From: Acidimicrobiia bacterium
GTDB taxonomy: Bacteria; Actinomycetota; Acidimicrobiia; Spongiisociales; JAHEDJ01
DNA: 64,000 nt
Assembly: GCA_035471805.1 (NCBI GenBank)
Contig: DATIPS010000058.1
Location: forward strand, 1,533-65,532
Direction: 5' to 3'
The notes beneath the pieces are model-generated. The model was not told the DNA's origin, ran no database searches, and saw nothing but the letters and a program-made list of their open reading frames with translations. Below, piece after piece: positions 15,775 through 61,292 of the stretch. Made by a program: the position numbers and the translations under genes. Within the stretch, counting starts at the first letter, position 1; every line of letters starts with the position of its first letter.

Positions 15775-15850
15775 TGGAGCCGGGTATCGGAATCGAACCG
15801 ATGACCACTTCTTTACAAGAGAAGAGCTCTACCGACTGAGCTAACCCGGC
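15775..15850 (-). tRNA. tRNA-Thr (anticodon UGU), CCA encoded
   Basis: 76-nt cloverleaf folded by hand: acceptor GCCGGGU/ACCCGGC, anticodon loop CUUGUAA, T-loop GGTTCGATTCC. Confidence 0.85.
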
Positions 15851-29650: not shown

Positions 29651-29667
29651 TGAGGGGGTCCTTTCGG

Positions 29668-29740
29668 CGCCCGCGGCAGGAATCGAACCTGCGACCTACT
29701 GCTTAGGAGGCAGTTGCTCTATCCCCTGAGCTACGCGGGC
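29668..29740 (-). tRNA. tRNA-Arg (anticodon CCU), CCA not encoded
   Basis: 73-nt cloverleaf: acceptor GCCCGCG/CGCGGGC, anticodon loop CUCCUAA, GGTTCGATTCC T-loop. Confidence 0.85.
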
Positions 29741-41543: not shown

Positions 41544-42716
41544 TCACCTGGTCAGGATCGCTCGCAATCTCCAGGCACCCACGGCGAAGAAGATTGCTGC
41601 GTAGCCGAGCAGGATCAGGAGGAATCCGGCGATGTCGCCGAATCCGCCCCCGTATCCCACCAACTCCTCGAAGGACTCCAACGCCCACGCGTGCGGAGTT
41701 ATGTGAGCCACTCGCCAGACCGTGTCCGAGAGGAGTTCGAAGGCTGCGAGCGGAAACATGGCTCCGCCCAGCGCGGCCAGTCCAAGGCCGATCATCGTCG
41801 CAAGGCCGCCTGCCTGCTGGTCGTTGGACACGACCGCACCCAGCAACATCGCAGCCCCGCTCGAAACCAGGGCGAAGACGGCGAGAACGACCAGCGCCAG
41901 CAACGGGTCTCCCCAATCGACTCCGAATATGAGCCACGTGCCGACGAAAACGACGATTCCCTGCACGAGTGCGATCGCCAGTCGGCTGAGTCCTTCGCCG
42001 AAGATGACGGTTCTTGCCGTAGTCGGTGTCGAGATCATGCGGCGGGTGACTCCGAGCCGCCTCGATTGGACCAGAGCGGCCGCTCCCTGGAGTGTGGTGA
42101 GGAAGATGAACAGAACGAGCATCGTTTGGGCGTAGATATCGAACTGTCCCAGCCCGGCGAGTGCGAATGGTTCACCGGCGGTTGAGGCTACGACTTCAAC
42201 GGGAGGGATGGCCGTCTGCACCTCGGTTGCGACGGTGAGAGCTTCGTTGAACGAACCGGCGCCTTGCAGTTCTGCGAAGCGGGCCGTTCGGAGGATCGTC
42301 GACTGCTGGTTGACTACCGAAGCTATTGCCGTGTTGATGCCCTGAAGCTCCTCGCTCTGGGTGCGGGTGACGTAGCGGACTTGCACATCACCGCCCGACT
42401 GAAGGGTCGCCGCGTATCCGTCGGGAAGTATCAAAGCGGCCTCGATTTGTCCCCGTTCCACGGCCCGGACGGCAGTCTCCTCAGAATCGAACTCCTTGAC
42501 GATCATGCCCTCGATGTCTTCGAGCCCACCGAGAAGCTGGGTCGAGAGGGCGTCCTCGGCCTCTGCGTGAAACCCCAGCCGCGGGGTGGAGGCCCCTCCT
42601 TGCATGGAGCCGAGTAGCAGTACCAGCAAGATCGGAAACAGGAAGACGGAGAAGATGTTGGAGCGATCGCGGAAGAACCTCCGCAGGCTGGTTCCGGCAA
42701 TCGCCAGGGCCTTCAT
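41544..42716 (-). CDS. ABC-2 family transporter permease
   Basis: N-terminal TM, large extracytoplasmic loop, 5 C-terminal TM. Confidence 0.7.
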   Translation of the reverse strand: MKALAIAGTSLRRFFRDRSNIFSVFLFPILLVLLLGSMQGGASTPRLGFHAEAEDALSTQLLGGLEDIEGMIVKEFDSEETAVRAVERGQIEAALILPDGYAATLQSGGDVQVRYVTRTQSEELQGINTAIASVVNQQSTILRTARFAELQGAGSFNEALTVATEVQTAIPPVEVVASTAGEPFALAGLGQFDIYAQTMLVLFIFLTTLQGAAALVQSRRLGVTRRMISTPTTARTVIFGEGLSRLAIALVQGIVVFVGTWLIFGVDWGDPLLALVVLAVFALVSSGAAMLLGAVVSNDQQAGGLATMIGLGLAALGGAMFPLAAFELLSDTVWRVAHITPHAWALESFEELVGYGGGFGDIAGFLLILLGYAAIFFAVGAWRLRAILTR

Positions 42717-45992: not shown

Positions 45993-46832
45993 CTACCACG
46001 TATCTTCATCCGAGATGTCGCGATAGGGACGCCAGCGGCTCAGTTTGGCTGCGGTCCGGCGAGCTCGGTTGGCGAGATCTCGCCAGAGCTGGGCACTTCC
46101 CTGTCTCGAAAGCGCCAGCTCGTCCCACCGCTGAGCGGAGGCACTGAAGGTGGCGTGGAGAGCCGGGAGAGCCCCCGGATATGCATCCCATCCCTCGGGG
46201 AGCCGGCGACCCTCGACCGGTTGGTCGAAGAGGTCGGTCAGGTACCCGTTCAAGAGCACGGTTCCCCCCCACACCGAGAGCATCATCGTTTCGAATGGGG
46301 CGTCGTCGAGTGGTCCGTATCCATCGAATCCGGGAACCACCAGGCCTTCGGTGCCGGAGAGGGCCGGGGCCGGACGGTGCAGGTCACCGAGGTCCAGCAG
46401 GATCCGCTTCGCCTCGTTGGCGGTGTCGGTCGATGCCGGGTAGTGCCTGCCGACGGCGTCCAACCAGGGGATTGCCCAATGAAGGATCCGGTCGCCCAGG
46501 AGGAATCGCCTGTCTTCGTGCGCCCGGGTCGCGATGTGTCCCCGGTCGCCGGCCCATGCCTCGCCCTCCGCGCGGGCCAGCGCTGCTCCGAAACGTGCAA
46601 GATCGGAGAGATCGCCACCTTTGATGTCGTAGTTCCAGGTCCTGGCGCGTCTCGACAGGTCTTCAGCCGGGTTGAACAAGCGGACTACCGCAGCTTCCGT
46701 AGGTGGAACGTCGATCAGGGCGGGCTTCTGCCGCCCGGTGTGCCAGGCACGGGCGACGCTCATCCATTGGGCGGCTTCGGCATTGGAGCGCGCCGCCGCA
46801 TCCAGAGAAGAAGATGTCGGTGAGGTGGTCAT
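45993..46832 (-). CDS. hypothetical protein
   Basis: 279 aa; immediately downstream of Mo-enzyme gene, possibly co-transcribed. Confidence 0.5.
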   Translation of the reverse strand: MTTSPTSSSLDAAARSNAEAAQWMSVARAWHTGRQKPALIDVPPTEAAVVRLFNPAEDLSRRARTWNYDIKGGDLSDLARFGAALARAEGEAWAGDRGHIATRAHEDRRFLLGDRILHWAIPWLDAVGRHYPASTDTANEAKRILLDLGDLHRPAPALSGTEGLVVPGFDGYGPLDDAPFETMMLSVWGGTVLLNGYLTDLFDQPVEGRRLPEGWDAYPGALPALHATFSASAQRWDELALSRQGSAQLWRDLANRARRTAAKLSRWRPYRDISDEDTW

Positions 46833-46954: not shown

Positions 46955-49738
46955 TCAATGGGCCCTGTAAGCCTCCGGGCTTGGCTTCACCGGGCGATCC
47001 AGCCAGAGCGGTCGGCGGGTTCCATCGGGCCCCGGGCCCGGCTTCGTCTGCGCCAACCATTCCCTGTAGACCTCGAAACTCTTGGAAGTGTCCACAACCA
47101 CGTCACCGTACTGATCGCCCGGCTCGGCCTTCGTGATCCGCACCCGCTGGTGCCAGGCGTGCATGCCGGACACGGGATCGGGATGCGTCGGGAAGGTGAG
47201 ATTCTGGTGAACGCCCGCATCCTTCCACCAGATGCGCTCCGAGTCGGGATCGTCCGATTTGAAAGGTTCGATTCCTTTCTTCTGACGCATCATCCACGTG
47301 CTCGAACCGGTCTTCGTGATGTCCACCAGCGCCGATGACCACCGCTCGTTTCCGAAATCGTCCGAAAGGCGCCAACGACCGAGGTGGTGGCTCGCAGCCA
47401 CGACGCCCGGGCGTATGCCTTCCGTCCGCCAGGCACGAATCACGAAGTGGCCGTTGTCGGTGTTGACCCGCACCAGGTCACCGGTGTCAAGATCGAGCGC
47501 GTCGGCATCGACCGGGTTTATCCATAGAGGGTGGCCGTGGCTGATCTCATACAGGTACTTGGCGTTTCCGGATCTCGTGTGAATGAGCGTCGGCAAGCGA
47601 AAGATCGGCAGAAGGATCCTCTCGTTGCCGGCCATGTCCATTTCTCTCCAGTAGACGTGCGTCTTGAGATACGAGGGGATCGCCTGGTCTGGCCAGCCCC
47701 ATTCGTGCATCGTCTTCGACCACCACTCCAGTTTCTTGGACGGCGATTTGAATCCGGTGACTACATCCGAGTGGACCCGCACGCCCACCGGCTGGCCCTG
47801 TCTCCGGGCAATGCCGTTCATGCCGACGTCGTCGTAGGCGACCGGTCGCTCGTGGACCTCATAGATGTCCTTCTCCACCTCGACCGCGCCGTACTTGCGC
47901 ATGAACTCGAGCGGTGTGATCCCTTCAGCGGCCGCCTTGTCGGGGAGGCCGGGCACGGAGTTGTCGAACATCCACCCGTAGTATTCGTCGACCGAGATGG
48001 GCCGGTTCGGGTCGTTGGGCGACTGGAACCATTGCTTGATGCTCAGTTCGCCGTCCGGGTCGATCCGCCACGACAAGTCGATCCAGAACTCGGTCTCTTC
48101 CCAAACCTCACCCGGATTGGCCTCGTACGTGCGCTCGTATACCTTGCCGTCTCGTTCGCCGGCCACGCGCAGGACGGGTTGGCGGAAACCAAGCCACTGC
48201 CCGGCATGGGTTTCGTAGGAGTGCGTGTCGTGTCTCTCGGCACTCACACCCATCGGCAGGACGTAATCGGCGTACCAGGCCGTCTCCGACCAGGTGGGGG
48301 TGAGGGCGACGTGGAGGCCCACCATGTCCTCGTCTGTCAGCACTTCTATCCAGCTGAACCCATCGGGGTTGGTCCAAACGGGGTTGTATACGCGGGTGAA
48401 GTAGGTGTCGAGTTTCCCCCGACCTTCCTTGAGGAAGTAGGGGAGCAATATGCTCATCTCGTGGTGAGCCAGCGGATACTCGGGCGGCCACAGGAGCTCA
48501 TTCCACCGGTTGTGGGTGGGCGGCATGTTCCAGTGGGTCGGCTTGAACTTGTCCCAGGCGCTCGGCGAGGTGCCCCCCTTGGTGCCGACCGAGCCCGTGA
48601 GGACGTGCAGGAACCACAGGGTCCGGGAGACTTGCCAACCACCCAGATTGCCCGATCCTGCCGAACGCCAGGTGTGACTGGCGAACCGGTGTCCGGCCTC
48701 GGCGATCCCCCTGGCGACCTCCACGAGACGGTCGGCATCGACACCCGACTCCTCGGCGGCCCACTCAGGGGTGTAGGAGGCGTAGGTCTCCTTCAGCACT
48801 GCGATGAACTCGCTGAACGTGCAGGGTCGATCGGGGTAGACCTCGGTGAGGGTCTGCTCCCAGTTGACCCAACGCTCCACGAAGGAGCGATCGATGGCGT
48901 CCCATTCGAGGAGCAGCCGGGCGATGGCGAGCAACATTGCTGCCTCGGTTCCCGGATAGGGCGATAGCCAGATGTCCGACATGGAGGCGGTGTTTGACAG
49001 CCGCGGGTCGATGGTGGCGAGTTTCGCACCCGCCTGCTTGCCCTCCATGATCCGTTGTGCGTGAGGGTTGAAATAGTGGCCGGTTTCCAGGTGAGAGGAC
49101 AACAGCAGAATGAATCGGGCGTTGGCGAAGTCGGCGGAAGGGCGGTCGTGTCCCATCCACATGGCGTAACCAACCCGGGCACCGGACGAGCAGATATTGG
49201 TGTGCGAGTTGTGGCCGTCGACCCCCCAGGCCTTCAGAGTGCGATCCATGAAGCCGTCCTCGCCGGGACGGCCGACGTGATACATGATCTCGTCGTTGCG
49301 ATCCTCCTGGAGCGCCTTGCGCATCCGGCCCGCGATGTCGTCGAGTGCTTCGTCCCAGGAGACCCGCTCCCACTCGCCCGAACCGCGCGGACCCTTGCGC
49401 CGCATCGGGTACAAGATGCGTTCGGGGTCGTAGACCTGGTTGATCGTTGCCGGGCCCTTGGCGCAGTTGCGTCCGCGTGATCCCGGGTGTTCGGGGTTCC
49501 CTTCGAAGCGGCGAATCTCCCCCGTGTCCTTGTCGATCACGGCAAGTAGACCGCAGGCGGATTCGCAGTTGAAACAGGTGGTCGGCACCATACGCACGTT
49601 GTGCTTGACCTTCTCCGGCCAGGCCTGTGCGTCGTACTCCTCCCAATCGTCCCACCGGTCGGGTGGCGGGAAACTGGTGAGTTCGGTTCCCGGCAGCAAT
49701 CGGGGAATCTCGAGGTCCGGCTCTCGGTGTGCGGTCAT
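46955..49738 (-). CDS. molybdopterin-guanine-dinucleotide oxidoreductase catalytic subunit (PsrA/PhsA/SoeA-like), no twin-arginine signal
   Basis: 927 aa; N-terminal CFNCESACGLL [4Fe-4S] motif; MopB domains; no RRxF in first 40 aa. Confidence 0.85.
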   Translation of the reverse strand: MTAHREPDLEIPRLLPGTELTSFPPPDRWDDWEEYDAQAWPEKVKHNVRMVPTTCFNCESACGLLAVIDKDTGEIRRFEGNPEHPGSRGRNCAKGPATINQVYDPERILYPMRRKGPRGSGEWERVSWDEALDDIAGRMRKALQEDRNDEIMYHVGRPGEDGFMDRTLKAWGVDGHNSHTNICSSGARVGYAMWMGHDRPSADFANARFILLLSSHLETGHYFNPHAQRIMEGKQAGAKLATIDPRLSNTASMSDIWLSPYPGTEAAMLLAIARLLLEWDAIDRSFVERWVNWEQTLTEVYPDRPCTFSEFIAVLKETYASYTPEWAAEESGVDADRLVEVARGIAEAGHRFASHTWRSAGSGNLGGWQVSRTLWFLHVLTGSVGTKGGTSPSAWDKFKPTHWNMPPTHNRWNELLWPPEYPLAHHEMSILLPYFLKEGRGKLDTYFTRVYNPVWTNPDGFSWIEVLTDEDMVGLHVALTPTWSETAWYADYVLPMGVSAERHDTHSYETHAGQWLGFRQPVLRVAGERDGKVYERTYEANPGEVWEETEFWIDLSWRIDPDGELSIKQWFQSPNDPNRPISVDEYYGWMFDNSVPGLPDKAAAEGITPLEFMRKYGAVEVEKDIYEVHERPVAYDDVGMNGIARRQGQPVGVRVHSDVVTGFKSPSKKLEWWSKTMHEWGWPDQAIPSYLKTHVYWREMDMAGNERILLPIFRLPTLIHTRSGNAKYLYEISHGHPLWINPVDADALDLDTGDLVRVNTDNGHFVIRAWRTEGIRPGVVAASHHLGRWRLSDDFGNERWSSALVDITKTGSSTWMMRQKKGIEPFKSDDPDSERIWWKDAGVHQNLTFPTHPDPVSGMHAWHQRVRITKAEPGDQYGDVVVDTSKSFEVYREWLAQTKPGPGPDGTRRPLWLDRPVKPSPEAYRAH

Positions 49739-49750
49739 GCGATCCCTTTC

Positions 49751-51319
49751 CTACGAGAGCGGAACACTCTGCCCGGCTTTCACGAATGCGTCGTCGGCGA
49801 ACCAGATCCCCGCCGACGCGGCTAATCCTCCAACGGCTCCTATCCATGTGGCTCCTCCGGCGAGCATGATGGAGCCGAGAGCTATCGGAACGACCACGCC
49901 GATCAGCTGTCCACCGATCCACCATTCCCTGGCGAAGTGGCCGCGGGTCATGTGGTGCATGGCCGCCTCGATGTTCCTGGTCGGGTGAGGTGTAGTCAGT
50001 TCGGCCAGTGCAATCAATCCGAGAACCGAGCAACCGATCACGAGCGTCCATCCGAATGCTCGCTCGGCCGTTTCCCCGACATCGAAGAACAGCGAGGCGA
50101 TCAAGGCCACGCCGCCGCCTGCCGCGAAAGCTCCCGCAATCATGTGGTAGAGCAGCACCGGACTCTGCCACAGGTCACGTGCTTCGGCCTGGCCGAACAG
50201 GAAGGCGGTGTATCCGGCGGTGGCGATGCCCAGCGGCAGTCCGATCCATGCCATGATCTCGACCAGGCCGTCCAACTCGAACAATCCCGCCAGGAACCAC
50301 ACGGCCAGGACGGCCGCATAGGCGCTCAGAATGTAGGCGCCCCGCACCAGCCACGATCCCGGGTTGCCTTTGATGATCAGGTAGTGGAATCGATCGGGGC
50401 GTTTGAGGTCCCAGATCAGCAGCACGCCGGTCAGCGCCAGAAACAATCCGGCGACCAGCGGTGTCGTCCAACGCATCCAGTTGCTTGTGAGTGAGGCGCC
50501 GAACAGCATTGCCATCGCAACGGCGATCGCCAGCCCGGCCGCGATACCTTTCGTGAGGAAGTAGGCGGACACGCGCCATCCCCACGGTGCCGGGTGATCG
50601 GTGTTGTATACGACGCGCGGTGGAGCGGCAGCATGATCCGAGGCCGCCGAAGGAGTCTGCCGGCGGCCGTTGGAGCCGGGGGTCAGGTCGACTGCCATGA
50701 AAGACCCTTCCGATGCTGGTTCGCGCCAAATGCCGCCATCGTGGAGGCTCGTCGCCGCCAGGGGATCGATGCTGGCGCCGTCTGCCCCCAGGTAGAAGAG
50801 GTTGGGGCCGGTTCCCTGTTCGGGAGCGCGGACGGTGGTGACCCGCGTCCGCACCAACCCGGCGATCTCAGTTGTGGGATCGTCCAGGTCGCCGGCGACG
50901 ATGGCGTGTTCGGGACAGACGACGACGCAAGCCGGCTCGAGGCCCACCTCGACGCGGTGGACGCAGTAGTTGCACTTCTGAGCGGTGTGCTCGTTGGGGT
51001 CGATGTAGAGCGAGTCGTACGGGCAAGCCTGCATGCACGATTTGCACCCGATGCAGCGGCTGGTATCGAAGTCGACGATGCCGTCGGAGCGCTTGTTGAG
51101 CGCAGTGGTCGGGCAGATCGCCACGCACGGTGCGTCGGTGCAATGGTTGCACCGCATTACCGAGAAGAAACGCTTGGTTTCCGGCCAGGCGCCTTTCTCT
51201 ACGTACTTGACCCATGTGCGGTTGACCCCCAGCGGAACCCCGTGCTCGGTCTTACAGGCGACCGTGCATGCGTGGCAGCCAATGCATTTCGTCTGGTCGA
51301 TGACAAATCCGTACCTCAG
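49751..51319 (-). CDS. fused 4Fe-4S ferredoxin (PsrB/NrfC/SoeB-like) and NrfD/PsrC-like membrane anchor
   Basis: First-ATG ORF starts at 51157 (MRCNHC). In-frame upstream sequence encodes RYGFVIDQTKCIGCHACTVACK, the canonical first Cys cluster. True start is probably a non-ATG codon near 51319 (CTG after GGGAGGG); upstream TAG at 51338. Confidence 0.7.
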   Translation of the reverse strand: MRYGFVIDQTKCIGCHACTVACKTEHGVPLGVNRTWVKYVEKGAWPETKRFFSVMRCNHCTDAPCVAICPTTALNKRSDGIVDFDTSRCIGCKSCMQACPYDSLYIDPNEHTAQKCNYCVHRVEVGLEPACVVVCPEHAIVAGDLDDPTTEIAGLVRTRVTTVRAPEQGTGPNLFYLGADGASIDPLAATSLHDGGIWREPASEGSFMAVDLTPGSNGRRQTPSAASDHAAAPPRVVYNTDHPAPWGWRVSAYFLTKGIAAGLAIAVAMAMLFGASLTSNWMRWTTPLVAGLFLALTGVLLIWDLKRPDRFHYLIIKGNPGSWLVRGAYILSAYAAVLAVWFLAGLFELDGLVEIMAWIGLPLGIATAGYTAFLFGQAEARDLWQSPVLLYHMIAGAFAAGGGVALIASLFFDVGETAERAFGWTLVIGCSVLGLIALAELTTPHPTRNIEAAMHHMTRGHFAREWWIGGQLIGVVVPIALGSIMLAGGATWIGAVGGLAASAGIWFADDAFVKAGQSVPLS

Positions 51320-51375
51320 CTTGCCCTCCCAGGTTCGCTACAGAGCCCAATTCCCACCCGAGGTCTCGTCGGTTC

Positions 51376-51600
51376 CTACGCTTTCTCGACCACGAAGTGA
51401 TACTCGCTGTCCTGTTCGAACTGTTCCTTCAACGGGTTGCCCGTGTCCTTCGACCAGGCCGGGATGTCGCTGAGGGCGCCGCGGTCGGTTGCGACGAGTT
51501 CGATTGTCTGGCCGGCGGCGGCACCGCTGACGGCCTGACTGAGTTTGAGAACGGGCATCGGGCATTGAAGATTGCGAGCGTCGACGATGATGTCGGCCAT
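51376..51600 (-). CDS. tusA: TusA-family sulfurtransferase
   Basis: 74 aa, CPMP (CPxP) active-site motif at residues 13-16. Confidence 0.75.
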   Translation of the reverse strand: MADIIVDARNLQCPMPVLKLSQAVSGAAAGQTIELVATDRGALSDIPAWSKDTGNPLKEQFEQDSEYHFVVEKA

Positions 51601-51612
51601 GTGCTCTCCTTT

Positions 51613-52140
51613 CTAGATGAACAAGCTGATCGAAGCCTCTTTCATGAGGCTAATTGCGGAACCCGCCCCGACGGGTGCGGAGAGGCCGTCGATGAGATGC
51701 TCATCCTTGAGGCCCATCAAATCCATCGTCATCTGGCACGGCCAGAGGTTCACTCCGAGGCTGATCGCCATTTCGAGCAACTCCTGTACGGAAGCGACGT
51801 TGTGGTCTTCCGCCAGGCCGCGCATCATTGCCGGGCCCATGCCGGCGAAATGGAGCTTGGACAATCCGAGTTTGGACGGCGACGCGTTGTGAAACATCGA
51901 AAGCATCTTCTGGCGCCAGTCGTCGCCCGTCAGGCCGGCATCCTCCTTCTTGAGGATGCCGAGTCCCCAGAAGGTGAAGAAGACCGTGACATCCATGCCG
52001 TAGGCGGCACCGGTGGTGGCCAGGATGAGCACCGGCCAGGCCTTGTCCAGATCGCCCGAAGCGGCGATGATGACCATCTTCTCCTTCTCAGGAGTCGTCT
52101 TATCGGCGACAGGTTCGGTCTGATGAGCAGTATCGGTCAT
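51613..52140 (-). CDS. DsrE/DsrF-family sulfur-relay protein
   Basis: AGGAGG RBS then MTDTAHQ; DsrE-like Rossmann fold. Confidence 0.6.
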   Translation of the reverse strand: MTDTAHQTEPVADKTTPEKEKMVIIAASGDLDKAWPVLILATTGAAYGMDVTVFFTFWGLGILKKEDAGLTGDDWRQKMLSMFHNASPSKLGLSKLHFAGMGPAMMRGLAEDHNVASVQELLEMAISLGVNLWPCQMTMDLMGLKDEHLIDGLSAPVGAGSAISLMKEASISLFI

Positions 52141-52172
52141 CGTCCCTCCTTCTCGTGGGCTCGTCCCCCTGC

Positions 52173-52184
52173 GCGCATATGCGC
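52173..52184. promoter_or_regulatory. perfect 12-bp palindrome GCGCATATGCGC in divergent dsrE / arsR promoter region
   Basis: candidate operator for the adjacent ArsR-family regulator. Confidence 0.35.
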
Positions 52185-52283
52185 CTCGGCGAATCTTGGT
52201 ACGGCCGCTTGCGGGCGTCAACCGGTTCCCGGGGTTTTCTGAGCGAGCACGATGAGGTCGGACCGGTCGGCTATGTTCTTGAG

Positions 52284-52613
52284 ATGCAATCCGTCGCCGA
52301 CGAGCTAACCGCGCTGCACGCCAGGGTCTGCAAGGGCATAGCGGACCCCAAGCGCCTCCTCATCCTCAACGCCCTCCGTGGCGGTGAGCGCTCCGTGATG
52401 GAGCTGTGCGACGATCTGGGCTTGCCTCAGGCCAATGTATCGCAACATCTCGCGGTGCTTCGGGACCGCGGTCTGGTCTGCACCCGCAGAGATGCTCAAC
52501 GGGTGTTCTACTCGTTGACTTCGGTCAAGATCGTCGAAGCCATCGATCTCTTGCGCGAGGTGATGGCAGAGCAGGCAGGCTCGGGTAGCGAGTCGCGCGC
52601 AGCCGGCCGGTAG
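52284..52613 (+). CDS. ArsR/SmtB-family transcriptional regulator (possible BigR/SqrR/CstR-like sulfur sensor)
   Basis: wHTH LADPKRLLILNAL...ELC signature; Cys at positions 16, 42, 66 of the short form; start at ATG 52284. Confidence 0.75.
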   Translation: MQSVADELTALHARVCKGIADPKRLLILNALRGGERSVMELCDDLGLPQANVSQHLAVLRDRGLVCTRRDAQRVFYSLTSVKIVEAIDLLREVMAEQAGSGSESRAAGR

Positions 52614-52730: not shown

Positions 52731-53858
52731 ATGCCCGGCTCGATTACCACCGACGATCTTGCCGCGCGGATCGAGGATCCCGAGAACGCCCCCTACATCC
52801 TCGACTTGCGTGCCGGGGACCAGTTCGAACGCTGGCGCATCGAGGGCAAACTGGCGCTCGACACGGTGAATGTGCCTTACTGGACGGCGCTTGGAGACAT
52901 CGAAGGCATCGCCGCCACGCTTCCCGACGATCGCGACGTGATAGCTATCTGCGCGCACGGAGGATCCTCGGGCATGGTGGTTGAGATGATGGACAAGCCG
53001 AACGTCAAGAACCTCGATGGTGGCATGGACCTGTGGGCTAACACGCTCATACCGCGAGTCCTTTTCGACGACGGCACTCACTTCGTGATCCAGCTGGATC
53101 GAATGGCAAAGGCGTGCCTGTCCTATGCCGTCGGTGCGCGCGGTCACAACATGGCCGTCATTGATCCGGCCGCCGACATCGACCGCTACCTGGCGCTGGC
53201 CGAGAGCTACGGGTCGAAACTGTCCGACATCTTCGATACCCATCTCCACGCCGACCACATATCGATCGGCGCTGCGATGGCCGAGCGCACCGGCGGCACC
53301 TACCGGATCGCGCCGGGCGATGCGGAGGACGCGGTCTTCGAGTACTCGCCTCTGGAGGACGGCCAGGTGTTCACGTTCGGCGAGCTTGAGATGATCGTAC
53401 GGTCGGTGGCGACGCCCGGGCATACTCCCGGATCGACATCACTCGAAGTGCACGGACGATTCCTGATGACGGGTGATGCCGTGTTCGTGACCGGCGTTGG
53501 ACGGCCGGATCTCGGCGGCGAGACCGAGCCCTGGGCCAGGGACCTGTTCAACACGATTCATGTCAAGTTGTCGCCGCTCGATCCGAACCTCGAGGTCTGC
53601 CCCGCGCACTACACGAGCCGCGCCGAATCGCGTGACGACGGGACCTTGCGCCGCAATCTCGGGGATCTGCTCGAGAATGATCCGGTGGTCTCGATTGCGG
53701 ACGAGTCGGAGTTCGTTGATTTCGTGGTGTCCCACCTCGGCGAGCCCCCGGCGATCTACAACGATATCCGAAAGGTGAACCTGGGCTTGCTCAGGCCCGA
53801 CGCAGAGAAGGCGAAGGAACTCGAAGTCGGCCGCAATGAGTGCGCCCTTTCCAAGTGA
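52731..53858 (+). CDS. rhodanese-MBL fold fusion protein (persulfide dioxygenase-like)
   Basis: N-terminal rhodanese with active-site Cys (ICAHGGSSG); C-terminal MBL fold with HLHADH (HxHxDH) motif. Confidence 0.8.
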   Translation: MPGSITTDDLAARIEDPENAPYILDLRAGDQFERWRIEGKLALDTVNVPYWTALGDIEGIAATLPDDRDVIAICAHGGSSGMVVEMMDKPNVKNLDGGMDLWANTLIPRVLFDDGTHFVIQLDRMAKACLSYAVGARGHNMAVIDPAADIDRYLALAESYGSKLSDIFDTHLHADHISIGAAMAERTGGTYRIAPGDAEDAVFEYSPLEDGQVFTFGELEMIVRSVATPGHTPGSTSLEVHGRFLMTGDAVFVTGVGRPDLGGETEPWARDLFNTIHVKLSPLDPNLEVCPAHYTSRAESRDDGTLRRNLGDLLENDPVVSIADESEFVDFVVSHLGEPPAIYNDIRKVNLGLLRPDAEKAKELEVGRNECALSK

Positions 53859-53896
53859 CGGGTGGCCGGCTCCGGAACCCGGGTAACCTCTCTGTC

Positions 53897-54244
53897 GTGA
53901 GCATTCCCCGGAGCCCGATTCTTCCGAACAACGGAAGCCGTGCGCGCGACCATCTCGCCAACGAGCGGACCTACCTCGCCTGGGTGAGGACTGCGCTCGG
54001 CATCATCGGTCTGGGTGTCCTCGTGGAGAAGCTCATTGAGTTGCAGGGCGTGGCGGCGGAAATCGCCGGGTTGAGCATGGTGGCCATGGGGGCTGCGGCG
54101 CTCGTTTACGCAACATTTCGCTACGAGCGAGTGCGGAGGCAGCTCGAAGAAGGGATGTTCCAGACCGCATCCACCGGCCCGATCGTGATCACTGCGCTGG
54201 GGCTGATCATGACGGTCGTCGCCGTCGTTTTCGTCCTGCTGTAG
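53897..54244 (+). CDS. DUF202 (YidH) family small membrane protein
   Basis: LANERTYLAWVRT signature followed by two TM helices. Confidence 0.6.
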   Translation: MSIPRSPILPNNGSRARDHLANERTYLAWVRTALGIIGLGVLVEKLIELQGVAAEIAGLSMVAMGAAALVYATFRYERVRRQLEEGMFQTASTGPIVITALGLIMTVVAVVFVLL

Positions 54245-54252
54245 GCGGAGAC

Positions 54253-55779
54253 TTGACGCCGCCGACAGGAAAGAGAGGCCGCCCGCGAACGGGGGACGTC
54301 ATCGCCGGGCTGAGTGTTGCCCTCATCCTCGTCCCGCAATCGCTGGCCTACGCCGAACTGGCCGGTTTGCCGCCCTTCGTTGGCCTGTACGCGGCTGCGC
54401 TGCCGCCCCTTGCCGCCGCCTTCCTCGCTTCATCCCCGTATCTCCAGACAGGGCCGGTGGCGATGACGGCCTTGCTGACCTTCGGAGCTCTGAGAGGGAT
54501 AGGGGCCGAGCCGGGCACCGCCGAGTACGTGGCGCTGGCCGCCTTGCTGGCGCTCATCGTTGGGGCGGTGCGGACCTTGATCGGGGTCGCCCGCGGCGGG
54601 TTTCTCGCCTACTTCATGTCGCAGCCCGTACTGATCGGGTTCACCTCTGCCGCGGCAATCCTCATTCTCTCCTCACAGTTCCCCACCGCGGTCGGCGTGT
54701 CGGCCCCGGCCTCCAGAATCCTCGGAAAGCTCTGGTGGACACTGACCCACTTCTCAGAATGGGATCCGGCGGCCGTCGTAATATCGCTGACGACCATCGG
54801 GCTGGTTGTAGGGGGGCGGAGGCTGCATCGGCTTTTCCCCGGCGTGTTGGTGGCAGTCATCGCAGGGATCCTCTACAGCACGATGTCCGGCTACGAAGGA
54901 TTCATCGTCGGAGACGTTCCGGCCGGCCTACCGCCCTTTTCGCTCGACCTGCCGTGGCATTCATTGCCGTCGCTGCTCGTCAGCGGTGTGGTCATTGCAC
55001 TCGTCGGGTTTGCCGAAGCGGCCGCCATCTCGCGCACGTTCGCCGCCCAGGATCGTCAGACCTGGAACCCGAGCAAGGAGTTCGTGAGCCAGGGCATCGC
55101 CAATCTCGCCTCCGGCATCTCGGGCGGCTTTCCGGTGGGCGGGTCGTTCTCCCGCTCGTCCGTGAATCGTCTGGCCGGTGGCAAGACCCGTTGGTCCGGT
55201 GCCGTCACCGGGATTGCGGTGCTGGCCTTCCTCCCGGTCGCCGGCGTGCTTTCTCCGCTACCCCAGGCAGTTCTCGCAGCCATCGTGATTTCTGCAGTCG
55301 CCCGCCTCATCCGGATCTCGCCTTTGTGGTCGATGTGGAGCTATTCGAAACCCCAGACCACGGTGCTGTGGACGACTTTCCTCCTGACTCTGATTCTCAG
55401 CCCTCGCATCGAGATCGCCGTGATTGTCGGGATCGGGCTCGGAATCCTCATTCACCTGTGGCGCGAGATCAAAATCGGCGTGCAAGCGAGCTACGACGGC
55501 GGGACGTTGCATCTGACACCGACCGGAGTCTTGTACTTCGGCTCTGCGCCGCAGCTGAATGAAGCGCTGCTGGCGTTGTTGACGAGCCATCCTGAGGCCA
55601 GAGCCATGGTATTCGATCTCGGCAATCTGGGTCGGATCGACTACACCGGCGCGCTCGTCCTCAAGAGCGTGGCGGACGAGGCAGTGGCTGCAGGACTCGA
55701 GATCTCATTCGAGAATGTTCCGCCGCAAACGAGGCGGATACTGGGCCGCGTGCTCGAGCAGAAGCTGCCGATTCCCTAG
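54253..55779 (+). CDS. SulP-family anion permease with C-terminal STAS domain
   Basis: TTG start; GLSVALILVPQSLAYA SulP N-terminal motif; C-terminal STAS. Confidence 0.8.
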   Translation: MTPPTGKRGRPRTGDVIAGLSVALILVPQSLAYAELAGLPPFVGLYAAALPPLAAAFLASSPYLQTGPVAMTALLTFGALRGIGAEPGTAEYVALAALLALIVGAVRTLIGVARGGFLAYFMSQPVLIGFTSAAAILILSSQFPTAVGVSAPASRILGKLWWTLTHFSEWDPAAVVISLTTIGLVVGGRRLHRLFPGVLVAVIAGILYSTMSGYEGFIVGDVPAGLPPFSLDLPWHSLPSLLVSGVVIALVGFAEAAAISRTFAAQDRQTWNPSKEFVSQGIANLASGISGGFPVGGSFSRSSVNRLAGGKTRWSGAVTGIAVLAFLPVAGVLSPLPQAVLAAIVISAVARLIRISPLWSMWSYSKPQTTVLWTTFLLTLILSPRIEIAVIVGIGLGILIHLWREIKIGVQASYDGGTLHLTPTGVLYFGSAPQLNEALLALLTSHPEARAMVFDLGNLGRIDYTGALVLKSVADEAVAAGLEISFENVPPQTRRILGRVLEQKLPIP

Positions 55780-57301: not shown

Positions 57302-60300
57302 TCAACTCGCATCGATGTTTGATGGTTGTCGGGACGAGGGGGGAAGGTGTGGCCCGGCCGGCCGCTGAGGAATCAGCCCCGCATCGAGAATCAGCTCTTG
57401 CAGCTCGGGCTCGAGGCGCGAGATCTCGAGTTCGAGTTCTACCCATGCGCCGCCGGCTCCCTGCCGGTCGCCGGCCCTGGCAACATCGTTCAGATCTCCG
57501 GCGGCTGCGGACACTGCGGTGGCCCCCAGCAGGCTGGAGCTGCCCTTCAGGCGGTGGGCAGCCTTGGCGACTGCACTCAAGTCTCCTTGGTCGATCCCGG
57601 TCTTGATGGCCCCGACCAGCTCCGGGAGCTCAACCATGAAGAGATCAGCCATTTCCGCGAGAACGTCGAGCATCCCCTCGACTCTGCCGAGGGCGTCCTG
57701 GCGGTCGAATACCCTTGGCCGGCCGGCTTGATCGGCGAAGCCGGACCGATCGGTGCGCGTCGGGTTGCCGGGCACCATCTGCTCGAGGGTGGCGAACAGC
57801 TCTTCCGCTCGGAAAGGCTTGGAGAGGAAGCCGTCCATACCGGCTTTCAGACATCTGTCTCGATCGGAATCCATCGCGTGAGCGGTGAGAGCGATGATGG
57901 GAATGTGGGTCTCGTCGTTCTCGTTGTCGCGAATGACCCGGGCCGCTTCGAGGCCGTCCATCCCCGGCATTTGGATATCCATCAGGACGGCGTCGAAGTT
58001 GCCCTCTGCGACCGACCGTACTGCCTCGTAGCCGTTCTCGACTGCGACCGCGACGTGCCCGCGTTTTTCGAGGAGCCTCAACGCAAGTCGCCGATTCGTG
58101 GGGCTGTCGTCGGCCACGAGGACCCGCATCCGTGTGCGCCGTTCCCGGATCCAATGGCGGGTAACCAGCTGATCGGGTCGGGACGGTCTGCTGAGAACCC
58201 TGACCATCTCGAGGAGCTCGGAGGCGTCATAGGGTCGAGCGAGGTATCCGGCCACACCGATCGATCTGTATTCGGCAGCTTCGCCGCGCCGGCCCGAACT
58301 CGGGCAGGCAATGATCGGGATGCCTGAGAACTCTCCGAGTCGCAATACCCGCGACGAAACCTCGAAAGTGGTTCGCTCGGTGTCGACGATGATGACGTTG
58401 GGTCGCCTGTTCAGCTGCTCGACCTCGAGCATCACGCTGACCGCAGTGGAGAGATCGGTCGCCCCGACCGACGCGACGTTGCCCTGTCGGAGCATCTCGA
58501 CGATGTTCCGCTGGGTGGCCGGCGAGTCCGTGATGAGGAGCGTCTGTATCTTCCCGGACGCAACCGGGCCGAGGGATTGGAGAAGAACGGCGGTGTCGTC
58601 GGCTACACCCAGAGTCGCTGTGAAGTGAAAGGTGCTGCCGGCTCCGAGGGCGCTCTCGACCCAGATTCTGCCGCCCATCTTCTCGACGAGTTCCGCGGTG
58701 ATCGTGAGCCCGAGGCCCGTGCCGCCGAAGCGGCGGGTGGTAGATCCGTCGGCCTGGGCAAAGGCTTCGAATATCTGTTCCTGCTTGTCTTCGGGTATCC
58801 CGACGCCGGTATCGGCTACCAAGACGTGCAGGTCGATGTCCGTGTCGGTGACTCTTTCCCCCTTGACGCTGACGAGAACACGACCGACATTGGTGAACTT
58901 GACCGAGTTACCGACCAGATTGAAGAGAATCTGGCGAAGTCGCCCGGGGTCACCGACGACCGCGTCCGGGAGCTGCGGGTCGAGTTCGTAGTCGAGTGAC
59001 AGTCCCTTTTCTGCCGCTCTCACTGCGATGGTCCGTATGGTGTCGCCGACCGTCTCGGTGAGACTGAACGGTATCTCCTCCAGCTCGAGCCGCCCTGCTT
59101 CGATCTTGGAGATGTCGAGAAGATCGTTGACGAGCGTTAGAAGGCCGTCTACAGACAGTTTCACCGTCCCCAGGTACTCACGCTGCTCGGCCGTGAGATT
59201 CGTGGAGAGGGTCAGTTCGGTCATTCCGAGAATGGCGTTCATAGGGGTGCGGATCTCATGACTGACGTTGGCCAGGAACTGCGACTTGGCGTCTGTGGCT
59301 CGCTCGGCCGTCTCCTTCGCTTCCCGCAGAGCAGTTTCCGCAGTCCGCCGCTTCTGTTCGGTTCGGATCGCGTCGGCGAGGCCTGCGACCGTGGCTACGA
59401 ACGGCTCCAGGTCCTCGGCGATTCGCGAGGTGTACCCGCCGGGACGGTTGGCGACGGCGAAGGCACCGGAAACCGATCCGTCCAGCCCGAAAGGTACGAC
59501 CATTACCGAATCGAGTGCGGAAGCATCGCCTGGGAACAGGGGGAGATCCTCAGCGTTCGGTCTGTCGGCTATCACGACTTCCCGGGTCCCGAGGGCCAGC
59601 CCGATCAGTCCTCCCGGCGCAGCCTGTTGGGTCTGCCCGGCCGGGTTCCAGCCTTCGCCCTGGGTGGCCTGGAGTTGCATCTGGCCGGCCTCGTCCATTT
59701 CGACGATTACCCCCCATGGGCTGGCGGTCAGGGTGAGCAGGTCGTCGAGGAGTGGCCCGAACTGGTGCAGGCGGTTGCCGTTGTCCTGGATGAACCGTCG
59801 CTGGGCTCTCGCCACGTGATCCAGCAGGGCGTTCTTCGCTGCCAGGTCGCGTTGGGCTCTCTTGAGCCGGGACACGTCGACGATCGAAAGCACGACGCGG
59901 CTCAGGTCCGGGTTGCCGTTGGTATGGAACGGCACCTCCCAGTGCATCACACAGTCGATGGGGTTCCCCCGGAGGGTTGATCCGGAGAAGTCGATGTAGA
60001 AACTCGATCGCTTCTCCCAAATGGCCAGGATCTGTTCGGTGAAGGCCAGATAGGTGCCGGCATCGATGGTTGTCGGGTTGATCGGTCCGATCAGATCGGC
60101 GCGACTGCCGGCCTCGACGAGGTCGACCGCCGCGTCGTTGACGTCGGTCACCTTTATGGCGGCGATGGCAGCCTCGAGGACCTCAGGATGGTCCCCGAGA
60201 TACGAGCGGAGGTCCTCGACACCGTCCCGGCGGAGGCGGTCGAGGATGGCTGCAGTGTCGAGATAGTTCTCCTGCCAGATCGAGGTCGGTGCGCTGTCGA

Positions 60301-60892
60301 ACAGAGAGCGGTAGCTGAGCTCGCTGGTTCTCACCGCGTTGGAGATCCTGTGGAGGGCGCCGGCGATGATCACGAAGACCGCGACCTGGAGAGCCATCGT
60401 GAAGAGGTGGGCTTCCCGGTCCCCGGCAAAGATCCCGGCGCCCCGGTCGGCCGCCCACACCAGCTGCAGCGCCCAGATCGTACCCAGGTAGGCGAGGTAC
60501 CATTTCTGGTGCTTCTTGGGTAGGAACAGCAGTCCAACCGCGCCGATCGCCGCTACTCCAACCAGCAGTGGGCTCCAACGCTCTGCCGGTTGGACCGGCA
60601 ACTGGAGCGCGGCCAGTGTGGCGACCACCAGAACCAGTTGCGGGGCGTTGATACTGCCGCGGTTGATCTGGAGAAAAGCAAAACCCGCGGTGACGATCGA
60701 CAGCGCCCCGAGGAAGCCGACACCCGCGTCTCTCGACAGGGTGGCGGCGATGATCAGCGGCACTCCGAGCGCGACTCCACCCCAACTGAGGCCGCGCACC
60801 ACCGTTCGCTCGATGGCGGATGCCGTGTCGTCGACGGCGTCGCGCGCCGCGGAGATATCTGTCCCGGCGCGTAGTCCCTGTAGCTCGACCAT
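57302..60892 (-). CDS. hybrid sensor histidine kinase: membrane domain-PAS-GAF-HisKA-HATPase-REC(degenerate)-REC-HPt
   Basis: 1196 aa; H-box [12 protein letters not shown]-boxes; canonical REC ([12 protein letters not shown]...[14 protein letters not shown]); HPt HRLKGSS. Confidence 0.85.
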
Positions 60893-61292
60893 GGCTAGAT
60901 ATTCGGCAGGTCGAGTAGCACCCTTGATTGCTTTCCCCGGGTCGGGGCATGCCGACCTCGAGGCGAAGGTGACGGTCCCGCGTTGTGGATGAAACAGGGC
61001 CCACGCCCTCGGCGCGGCTCGCCCGGTTTGTGTTCTTCCGTGTGTTCAGCCTCAGCGTCCGTCCGCCTTCGACCTGCCGGTGGGTTACGGCGTGGACGGG
61101 CTCCCGATCGTGAAATCTCCGAATAGGCGCGAATATGTCTTCCGCAGGATCGCCGTTCGGCTATGGTGGCGTCTCGATGAGCCACAAGCCGTTCGTTGAG
61201 AAGCCGCCCGAGGGGGCGGCCTTTTTTCTGCCCGGGACACGGTGCGCTGCCGCACCCGGCGCGGATCAGCGGCGAATCGAAGGAGATACGAC

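Follow-up and report, generated by a model that had tools for sequence, protein, structure and literature searches.

A CTG codon as the probable start of a fused ferredoxin-NrfD membrane subunit gene, recurrent and conserved in Acidimicrobiia

The closest described systems are molybdoenzymes in which a catalytic subunit (A) is associated with a ferredoxin subunit (B) and, in two of the three, with a membrane anchor of the NrfD type (C). In PsrABC, the polysulfide/thiosulfate reductase of Thermus thermophilus (PDB 2VPW-2VPZ), B and C are separate proteins and PsrAB is exported to the periplasm by the twin-arginine translocation (Tat) pathway. In SoeABC, the sulfite:quinone oxidoreductase of Allochromatium vinosum and Aquifex aeolicus, a catalytic subunit carrying molybdenum-bis(pyranopterin guanine dinucleotide) (Mo-bisPGD) and FS0 is joined by a ferredoxin with four clusters and an anchor of the NrfD type. 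SoeB and SoeC are likewise not fused, and their genes are linked to sulfur-relay genes coding for TusA, DsrE and rhodanese. SoeABC is the only NrfD-type molybdoenzyme that has been proposed to face the N-side, i.e. the cytoplasm (PMC8076601). According to the same review of the NrfD family, SoeC occurs in Proteobacteria, Clostridia and Aquificae; Actinomycetota are not among the taxa listed, and a fusion of B and C is not mentioned. ArrAB, the respiratory arsenate reductase of Shewanella sp. ANA-3 (PDB 6CZ7), is periplasmic owing to the Tat signal of ArrA. Here, we describe a gene coding for a fused B-C protein (BC) in a stretch of 64,000 nucleotides from an Acidimicrobiia bacterium (GenBank assembly GCA_035471805.1, contig DATIPS010000058.1, positions 1,533 to 65,532), referred to as the window. 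Most likely, translation of this gene begins at a CTG codon.

Initiation at codons other than AUG is well established in bacteria. GUG and UUG are common start codons, AUU is used by infC of E. coli, and CUG, AUA, AUC and AUU are rare starts in translation table 11. Annotations of model genomes already contain CTG as a rare start (10.1101/063800). The BC gene resembles the documented cases of bacterial non-AUG initiation in that a near-cognate codon would be used in a manner dependent on a Shine-Dalgarno (SD) sequence, a weak codon being paired with a strong SD. It differs from them in that, throughout a clade, roughly one in three orthologues of a single gene starts with CTG. Bacterial CTG starts as such are rare but recognised, and the protein belongs to well-known families. 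What is new is the clade-wide, recurrent and conserved CTG at a single gene and the resulting systematic truncation of its product in public gene calls. Literature searches on CTG starts in Actinobacteria, on SoeABC in Acidimicrobiia and on fused NrfC-NrfD proteins did not turn up any account of this gene or its start.

All coordinates given below are positions in the window, and the BC gene is located on the minus strand. The first ATG opens a reading frame of 468 amino acids (49751..51157) with the N-terminus MRCNHCTDAPCV. The same frame is open 5' of this ATG and translates as *RTWEGK-L-RYGFVIDQTKCIGCHACTVACKTEHGVPLGVNRTWVKYVEKGAWPETKRFFSV-M; read further upstream, it is ...NWAL*RTWEGKLRYGFVIDQTKCIGCHACTVACKTEHGVPLGVNRTWVKYVEKGAWPETKRFFSVMRCNHC..., the asterisk marking the stop. 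It is closed by an in-frame TAG at 51338..51340. No ATG, GTG or TTG is present in frame between this TAG and the ATG of Met55 (51155..51157), which is the first canonical start. A CTG is located seven codons 3' of the TAG (51317..51319) and would be decoded as formylmethionine (fMet). It is preceded by the SD sequence GGGAGGG (51324..51330) with the four-nucleotide spacer CAAG, so that the GGAGG core is 5 nt away from the CTG. Pairing of GGGAGGG with the anti-SD sequence amounts to -10.7 kcal/mol. The initiation region is less stably folded than 196 of 200 shuffled versions (z = +1.8), a result that fits an accessible start. In the entire window, Rfam detected two tRNAs only and no riboswitch or leader near the start, and a scan for promoters and terminators between 46.5 and 54.5 kb gave nothing above shuffle expectation.

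Read from the CTG, the coding sequence comprises 49751..51319 including the stop codon TAG (49751..49753) and encodes 522 amino acids, in line with the ~520 amino acids of full-length homologues. We estimate the probability that translation begins at this CTG (51319..51317) at about 85%. The ATG, 54 codons 3' of the CTG, is an internal methionine. The original prediction, which was made from the window alone, had already proposed the CTG four nucleotides after GGGAGGG as initiator; orthologue starts, 21 sequences with CTG and constraint on codons 1-54 now support it. The bounding TAG was likewise recognized correctly, but was placed at 51336..51338, and the length of the product had been given as 520 amino acids.

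The translation from CTG to stop was used as query in protein searches, which yielded at least 8,000 scored candidates. The best matches are fused proteins of ~520 amino acids, mostly from metagenome-assembled genomes (MAGs) of Acidimicrobiia. Full-length homologues begin with MRYGFVIDQ, VRYGFVIDQ or LRYGFVIDQ, and the general pattern M/V/L-(R/Q/K)-Y-G-F starts at the CTG codon. The closest matches, P0001 (95% identity) and P0002 (81%), are N-terminally cut gene calls, as are many others. On the DNA level, the loci L001 and L002 (two Logan runs; 95% amino-acid identity) and L003 (JGI metagenome; 81%) share an identical CCTGGGAGGGCAAG-CTG-AGGTACGGATT. Thus, the gene calls of the closest relatives are cut short because their DNA has the CTG start. 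Apart from cut gene calls, no orthologue starts at the methionine of MRCNHC.

Start codons were counted as the codon preceding (R/Q/K)YGF in scans of two collections, and the CTG of the window is included in both. Among genome contigs and L001-L003 (83 sequences plus the window), ATG is present 33 times, GTG 25 times, TTG 13 times and CTG nine times, while the other four have a canonical start one codon upstream. The metagenome contigs (79 plus the window) contain 39 ATG, 15 GTG, three TTG and ten CTG at this position, and a canonical start is located one codon upstream in 13. Six further database calls with a cut N-terminus were inspected at the DNA level; five of them have CTG and one has TTG. 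In about 170 orthologous loci, the start codon thus coincides with this position to within one codon. Altogether, CTG occupies the start position in 21 distinct sequences. In 19 of these, the stretch from the closest in-frame stop upstream to the CTG contains no ATG, GTG or TTG, and for most of the 19 this stop is 4-18 codons away. A strong purine-rich SD is present 5-8 nt upstream in all CTG sequences except L095 and L096.

Other non-canonical codons are located near the CTG, namely AAG at -1, AGG at +1 and ATC at codon 7 (51301..51299). These near-cognates lie in the same short segment past the SD, and the comparative data do not resolve a single codon. Initiation at one of them is nevertheless improbable, since the position of the CTG alone coincides with the ATG, GTG or TTG of the orthologues. 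The codon before the CTG varies (AAG, CCA, CTC, ACC, GAT, CCC, CGC) and so does the codon after it (AGG, CGC, CGT, CGG, AAG), whereas the CTG itself is constant. Furthermore, AAG and AGG belong to the weakest class of codons in E. coli, with 0.1-1% of the initiation from AUG (10.1101/063800).

Among the top 120 homologue clusters of the public protein collection, 19 are N-terminally cut gene calls (P0001, P0002, P0028, P0034, P0037, P0040, P0052, P0053, P0069-P0071, P0073, P0075, P0076, P0084, P0089, P0099, P0110 and P0120). The loci tied to cut clusters are L001-L003, L007, L089 and L164-L169. The cut calls begin at an internal V, M or L, e.g. at (M/V)ACKTEH, (M/V)PLGV or MIDQ. Inspection of the DNA of ten cut clusters showed CTG at the true start in nine; in the tenth (P0052/L168) an ordinary TTG was skipped by the caller. 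Four cluster ligands are missing from the shortened models, so that predicted structures and conclusions on metabolism could go astray for a widespread group of marine and sediment Acidimicrobiia.

Constraint on the 5' part of the gene was analyzed in a four-way alignment of the window with L001, L091 (91% amino-acid identity) and L003. Comparison of codons 1-54 of the window yielded 13 synonymous and no non-synonymous differences to L001, 19 synonymous differences and one non-synonymous difference to L091, and 19 synonymous and three non-synonymous differences to L003. If constraint were lacking, ratios of this kind would arise with p of about 1e-7 or below, and these codons are thus under strong purifying selection. 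The block from -16 to +3, which consists of the 16 nucleotides AACCTGGGAGGGCAAG and the CTG, is unchanged in all four sequences. In this alignment, changes 3' of the CTG affect third positions only. 5' of position -16, identity is low and frame-breaking indels of 20-22 nt and of 1 nt are present. The synonymous divergence after the CTG and the indels upstream thus indicate that coding constraint starts at the CTG and that the ribosome-binding site itself is conserved.

If the first ATG (51157) were used, a protein of 468 amino acids with incomplete clusters would result, and the 54 codons before it would be what is left of a decaying reading frame. Gene callers report this start, public gene calls begin here and the 468-residue product is recorded on 15 contigs; ATG is also a far stronger initiator (10.1101/063800). 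A decaying remnant is difficult to reconcile with synonymous to non-synonymous counts of 13:0, 19:1 and 19:3, and the four cysteines of the first cluster-binding group, all of which are encoded 5' of the ATG, are kept in every orthologue. By homology with PsrB and ArrB, whose chains are aligned from residue 1, these cysteines ligate clusters of the electron wire. Moreover, no SD sequence is found 5' of Met55 (tcttctcggta ATG), and full-length orthologues with canonical starts begin at the position of the CTG. A start at Met55 is therefore considered very unlikely.

A similarly slight probability is assigned to an event further upstream, either termination and reinitiation from a short upstream open reading frame (uORF) or a programmed frameshift from an upstream start. 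A uORF of 13 codons with a GTG start is indeed present (51316..51359, minus strand; GTG at 51357, TGA at 51318..51316), and its TGA overlaps the CTG by 2 nt (CTGA). It is not conserved, as the same frame of L001 has a TAG nine codons upstream and no start codon. The CTGA overlap is absent at other CTG loci, which read CTGCGC, CTGCGT or CTGCGG. The large indels 5' of -16 and the TusA stop codon at a distance of only 56 nt also argue against such an event. Coupling to the uORF was rejected because it is absent from the 95%-identical L001 and from other CTG loci; the overlap is probably fortuitous.

A sequencing or assembly error that created the TAG or destroyed an ordinary ATG, GTG or TTG start has some prior probability in metagenomic assemblies, and this is all that speaks for it. 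Three Logan assemblies, each from a different sequencing run, show 100% identity with the window along 3,407 bp, a segment that contains both the TAG and the CTG. The same SD-CTG arrangement occurs in L001 and L002 (95%), L091 (91%) and L003 (81%) from other samples, and CTG at the start position recurs in the 21 distinct sequences. An error is thus hardly conceivable, and the CTG remains the preferred initiation codon.

In a neighbour-joining tree of 153 distinct proteins, every CTG sequence falls within one clade of 41 sequences from Acidimicrobiia/Actinomycetota MAGs. The start codons in this clade are CTG (14), TTG (13), GTG (9) and ATG (2), and three sequences start one codon upstream. 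The 112 sequences outside the clade have no CTG, three TTG, 28 GTG and 69 ATG, with 12 starts one codon upstream. The difference in CTG use (14/41 vs 0/112) has a Fisher p of 1.5e-9. Mean SD pairing in the clade is -10.0 kcal/mol for CTG, -9.5 for GTG and -9.3 for TTG starts, compared to -4.7 kcal/mol for four ATG starts.

The other genes of the same loci do not share the CTG start: it was found in none of 20 TusA genes and none of 41 A-subunit genes, both of which mostly start with ATG. A screen of all open reading frames in the window with high GC content at third codon positions (GC3) identified no other upstream extension with SD and CTG that has coding-like GC3. CTG use is specific to the BC gene, and the data favour a gene-specific explanation.

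Two other SD-CTG candidates in the window were rejected. The first (42186..42617) is a probable shadow reading frame. The second (57302..61045) would extend the gene of a hybrid histidine kinase, and this extension has low GC3 and contains no domain. The kinase itself (57302..60892, minus strand) comprises GAF, HisKA, HATPase_c, receiver and Hpt domains, and the open stretch of 51 codons 5' of its first ATG is probably untranslated.

Several points weigh against initiation at the CTG and against its repeated origin. CUG supports 1-2% of the initiation from AUG in E. coli (10.1101/063800). In mycobacteria, which also belong to the Actinomycetota, CUG was not enriched at leadered starts in a selection experiment (0.03%; PMC4633059). 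Since initiation at CUG is weak in the species tested, an adequate level of a stoichiometric enzyme subunit is left unexplained. An in-frame GTG is present upstream of the CTG in L003 (at -16) and L007 (at -50), and the CTG need not be the start there. Finally, Fitch parsimony gives ~8 changes between CTG and non-CTG with TTG or CTG as root state, a number to be read with the caveat that a single-protein neighbour-joining tree is a rough basis for counting independent origins of CTG.

In L003, the GTG lies 16 codons 5' of the CTG with no stop in between (L003:2836..2886), yet the JGI gene call used a downstream internal GTG. In the corresponding segment of L091, which is close to L003, a 1-nt indel and an in-frame TGA are present. 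The GTG extension of L003 is thus not conserved.

Despite the weakness of CUG in tested species, the CTG has persisted in the gene of a stoichiometric respiratory subunit among lineages with amino-acid identities as low as 81%. According to the proposed mechanism, the strong conserved SD 4-5 nt upstream would place the 30S subunit in a poorly structured initiation region. The initiator tRNA would then read CUG with a mismatch at the first position, giving fMet-Arg-Tyr-Gly-Phe, and the output would presumably be below that from AUG. In the clade, weak starts of the BC gene (TTG, CTG, GTG) are habitually paired with a strong SD. CTG may have arisen or reverted several times, probably by transitions between TTG and CTG, and may then have been kept. 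Gene callers restricted to ATG, GTG and TTG therefore truncate the BC protein.

Three options for the use of so weak a codon are left open: low expression of BC may be acceptable or even favoured, the strong SD may compensate more than in model species, or the clade may discriminate less against CUG. A more far-reaching reading is possible, but rather doubtful. In this reading, CTG would be a selected gene-specific setting, i.e. a throttle or a condition-sensitive switch (responding, for example, to the level of initiation factor 3 or to stress) by which production of a membrane-inserted subunit with 16 iron ligands is adjusted to cofactor supply, or else the clade would discriminate against CUG much less than E. 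coli and mycobacteria do. If relaxed discrimination were true, a hidden set of CTG-started genes would be missed by all current annotations of the class. The BC gene offers an unusually clean comparative case, in which CUG appears to have been gained or lost repeatedly in a phylum of which Mycobacterium, where CUG is hardly used, is the sole member tested. The gene is also a ready system for studying SD compensation of a weak start and differences between lineages in start-codon stringency.

The protein starting at the CTG can be divided into three parts. The ferredoxin (B) domain comprises residues 1 to ~185 (50765..51319), as delimited by alignment with PsrB (2vpw_B) and by NCBIfam profiles, and has no signal peptide. 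It is followed by a variable B-C linker (residues ~186-245; 50585..50764) that has no domain match and differs in length and sequence among homologues. Residues ~246-522 (49754..50584) form an NrfD/PsrC-like membrane domain according to Pfam and hydropathy. Both Pfam families, Fer4_11 (82.1 bits; cut-off 26.2) and NrfD (83.4 bits; cut-off 25.8), are matched by the one polypeptide. The NrfD match covers residues 245-499 of the 528-residue stop-to-stop translation and positions 4-286 of the 313 profile positions.

Counted from the CTG, 16 cysteines are arranged in four groups (12/15/18/22, 57/60/65/69, 89/92/95/99 and 116/119/131/135). The first group, C12-x2-C15-x2-C18-x3-C22 (51254..51286), is lost if the ATG is used. 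The cysteine pattern of a four-cluster ferredoxin, the beta subunit of complex iron-sulfur molybdoenzymes, is complete only with the CTG start. The canonical NrfC/PsrB N-terminus and the first cysteine group, which had been predicted to be encoded 5' of the first ATG, are confirmed there by the translation and by profile and PDB alignments. PsrB (2vpw_B; E = 7e-47) aligns with its residues 3-181 to residues 2-180, and residues 1-104 of ArrB (6cz7_B) align to residues 1-104. Relative to the stop-to-stop translation, position 2 of the NCBIfam profile ArrB and position 1 of DmsB correspond to residue 8, and position 1 of QrcC corresponds to residue 9. The ArrB, DmsB and QrcC profiles and the ArrB and PsrB structures thus place residue 1-2 at the CTG and support the start position. 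The profiles of the exported relatives TtrB, DsrO and NrfC match only from profile position 35-41, i.e. past their Tat signal.

In the membrane domain, hydropathy shows seven transmembrane helices clearly and an eighth, C-terminal one more weakly. With the N-terminus taken as inside, nine Lys/Arg residues are located in the 'in' loops and two in the 'out' loops. This positive-inside count supports an N-in topology, as far as such a prediction from the sequence goes. The product has the features of a cytoplasmic NrfC/PsrB-type ferredoxin with four predicted [4Fe-4S] clusters, fused to a putative quinone-binding anchor of the NrfD/PsrC type with eight helices. It is a member of none of the named equivalogs tested, since the NCBIfam cut-offs were missed for TtrB (182 bits; cut-off 416), DsrO (164; 200), NrfC (161; 378), ArrB (153; 450) and DmsB (141; 214).

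Fusion of B and C had been regarded as uncommon. This view does not hold: at least 8,000 candidates with fused Fer4 and NrfD proteins were found and the genome scans returned ~600 or more loci each. The fused loci span Acidimicrobiia, Actinomycetes (Gordonia, Intrasporangium, Micromonospora), Bacteroidota, Chloroflexota, Acidobacteriota and Binatia. The fused B-C architecture, which would face the cytoplasm, is thus abundant across phyla.

The gene of the catalytic Mo-bisPGD subunit (46955..49738, minus strand; 927 amino acids) begins with an ATG 10 nt after the BC stop codon. It was assigned by the Pfam families Molybdop_Fe4S4, Molybdopterin and Molydop_binding. The best PDB matches are PsrA (2vpw_A; E = 2e-32) and ArrA (6cz7_A), the FS0 motif is present and the equivalent of PsrA Cys173 is kept. 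The N-terminus MTAHREPDLEIPRLL lacks the RRxF motif and thus a twin-arginine signal. A reading frame of 279 amino acids without Pfam match (45993..46832, minus strand) is located directly 3' of the A subunit.

PsrABC is the best match among solved structures for both the B part and the A subunit. The window proteins resemble it in the four cysteine groups for [4Fe-4S] clusters in B, the anchor of the NrfD/PsrC type and the conserved molybdenum-ligand cysteine (PsrA Cys173). The A subunit is ~160 amino acids longer than PsrA, and the match to PsrABC is one at the family level. In contrast to PsrABC, B and C are fused and neither of the two subunits has a signal. As BC and A have no export signal, the membrane orientation would be inverted relative to PsrABC. 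In ArrAB, it is the ferredoxin that is comparable. Alignment of ArrB residues 1-104 to residues 1-104 indicates that the CTG-started protein begins directly at the ferredoxin fold without a leader. ArrAB differs in its periplasmic location and, apart from the low equivalog score (153 vs 450 bits), arsenic genes are absent from the context of the window locus.

The architecture of Mo-bisPGD subunit with FS0, four-cluster ferredoxin and NrfD anchor is shared with SoeABC. A and B of the window have neither a Tat nor a general secretory (Sec) signal, which matches the cytoplasmic side proposed for SoeABC as judged from sequence. Unlike in SoeABC, B and C are parts of a single polypeptide, and the likeness is one of architecture and gene context. 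In the window, genes for a TusA sulfur carrier (51376..51600, minus strand; Pfam TusA, 75 bits) and a DsrE2-like sulfur transferase (51613..52140, minus strand; Pfam DrsE_2, 164 bits) are located 5' of BC. TusA has an ATG start and its stop is the one 56 nt 5' of the CTG. Further genes on the plus strand were assigned by Pfam to an ArsR-family regulator (52155..52613, start uncertain), a persulfide-dioxygenase-like protein with rhodanese and metallo-beta-lactamase (MBL) domains (52731..53858), DUF202 (53840..54244) and a SulP-STAS permease (54253..55779). The operon thus lies in a compact locus for sulfur handling, and the order DUF202, rhodanese-MBL, regulator, DsrE2, TusA, BC and A recurs in relatives. 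The regulator, rhodanese-MBL and DUF202 genes also adjoin the operon in L001 and L003.

BC and A would form a complex iron-sulfur molybdoenzyme facing the cytoplasm that couples a sulfur substrate to the quinone pool by electron transfer. It is probably a SoeABC-like sulfite:quinone oxidoreductase. In this case, the sulfite oxidised by BC and A would stem from the products of the neighbouring persulfide-dioxygenase-like, TusA and DsrE2 genes, and the SulP permease would handle the anion. Against this assignment, which is drawn from topology and gene context, stands the fact that the equivalog cut-offs of TtrB, DsrO, NrfC, ArrB, PhsA and DmsA were all missed. No NCBIfam family named SoeA, SoeB or SoeC is among the matches listed (all 24 for A; the best 25 of 58 for BC). 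The substrate is the weakest step of the assignment, and a cytoplasmic reductase of another sulfur compound is an alternative.

The starts of two neighbouring genes differ between the listed reading frames and their relatives. The DsrE2-like reading frame extends to a TTG at 52221 (202 amino acids), yet relatives and Pfam fit the ATG at 52140 (175 amino acids), and the 27 codons upstream of this ATG are probably untranslated. For the ArsR-family regulator, the GTG at 52155 gives 152 amino acids compared to 105-110 in relatives. The only RNA genes of the window, identified by ARAGORN and Rfam and uninformative as to the initiator tRNA, are those of tRNA-Thr(TGT) at 15775..15850 and tRNA-Arg(CCT) at 29666..29740, both on the minus strand.

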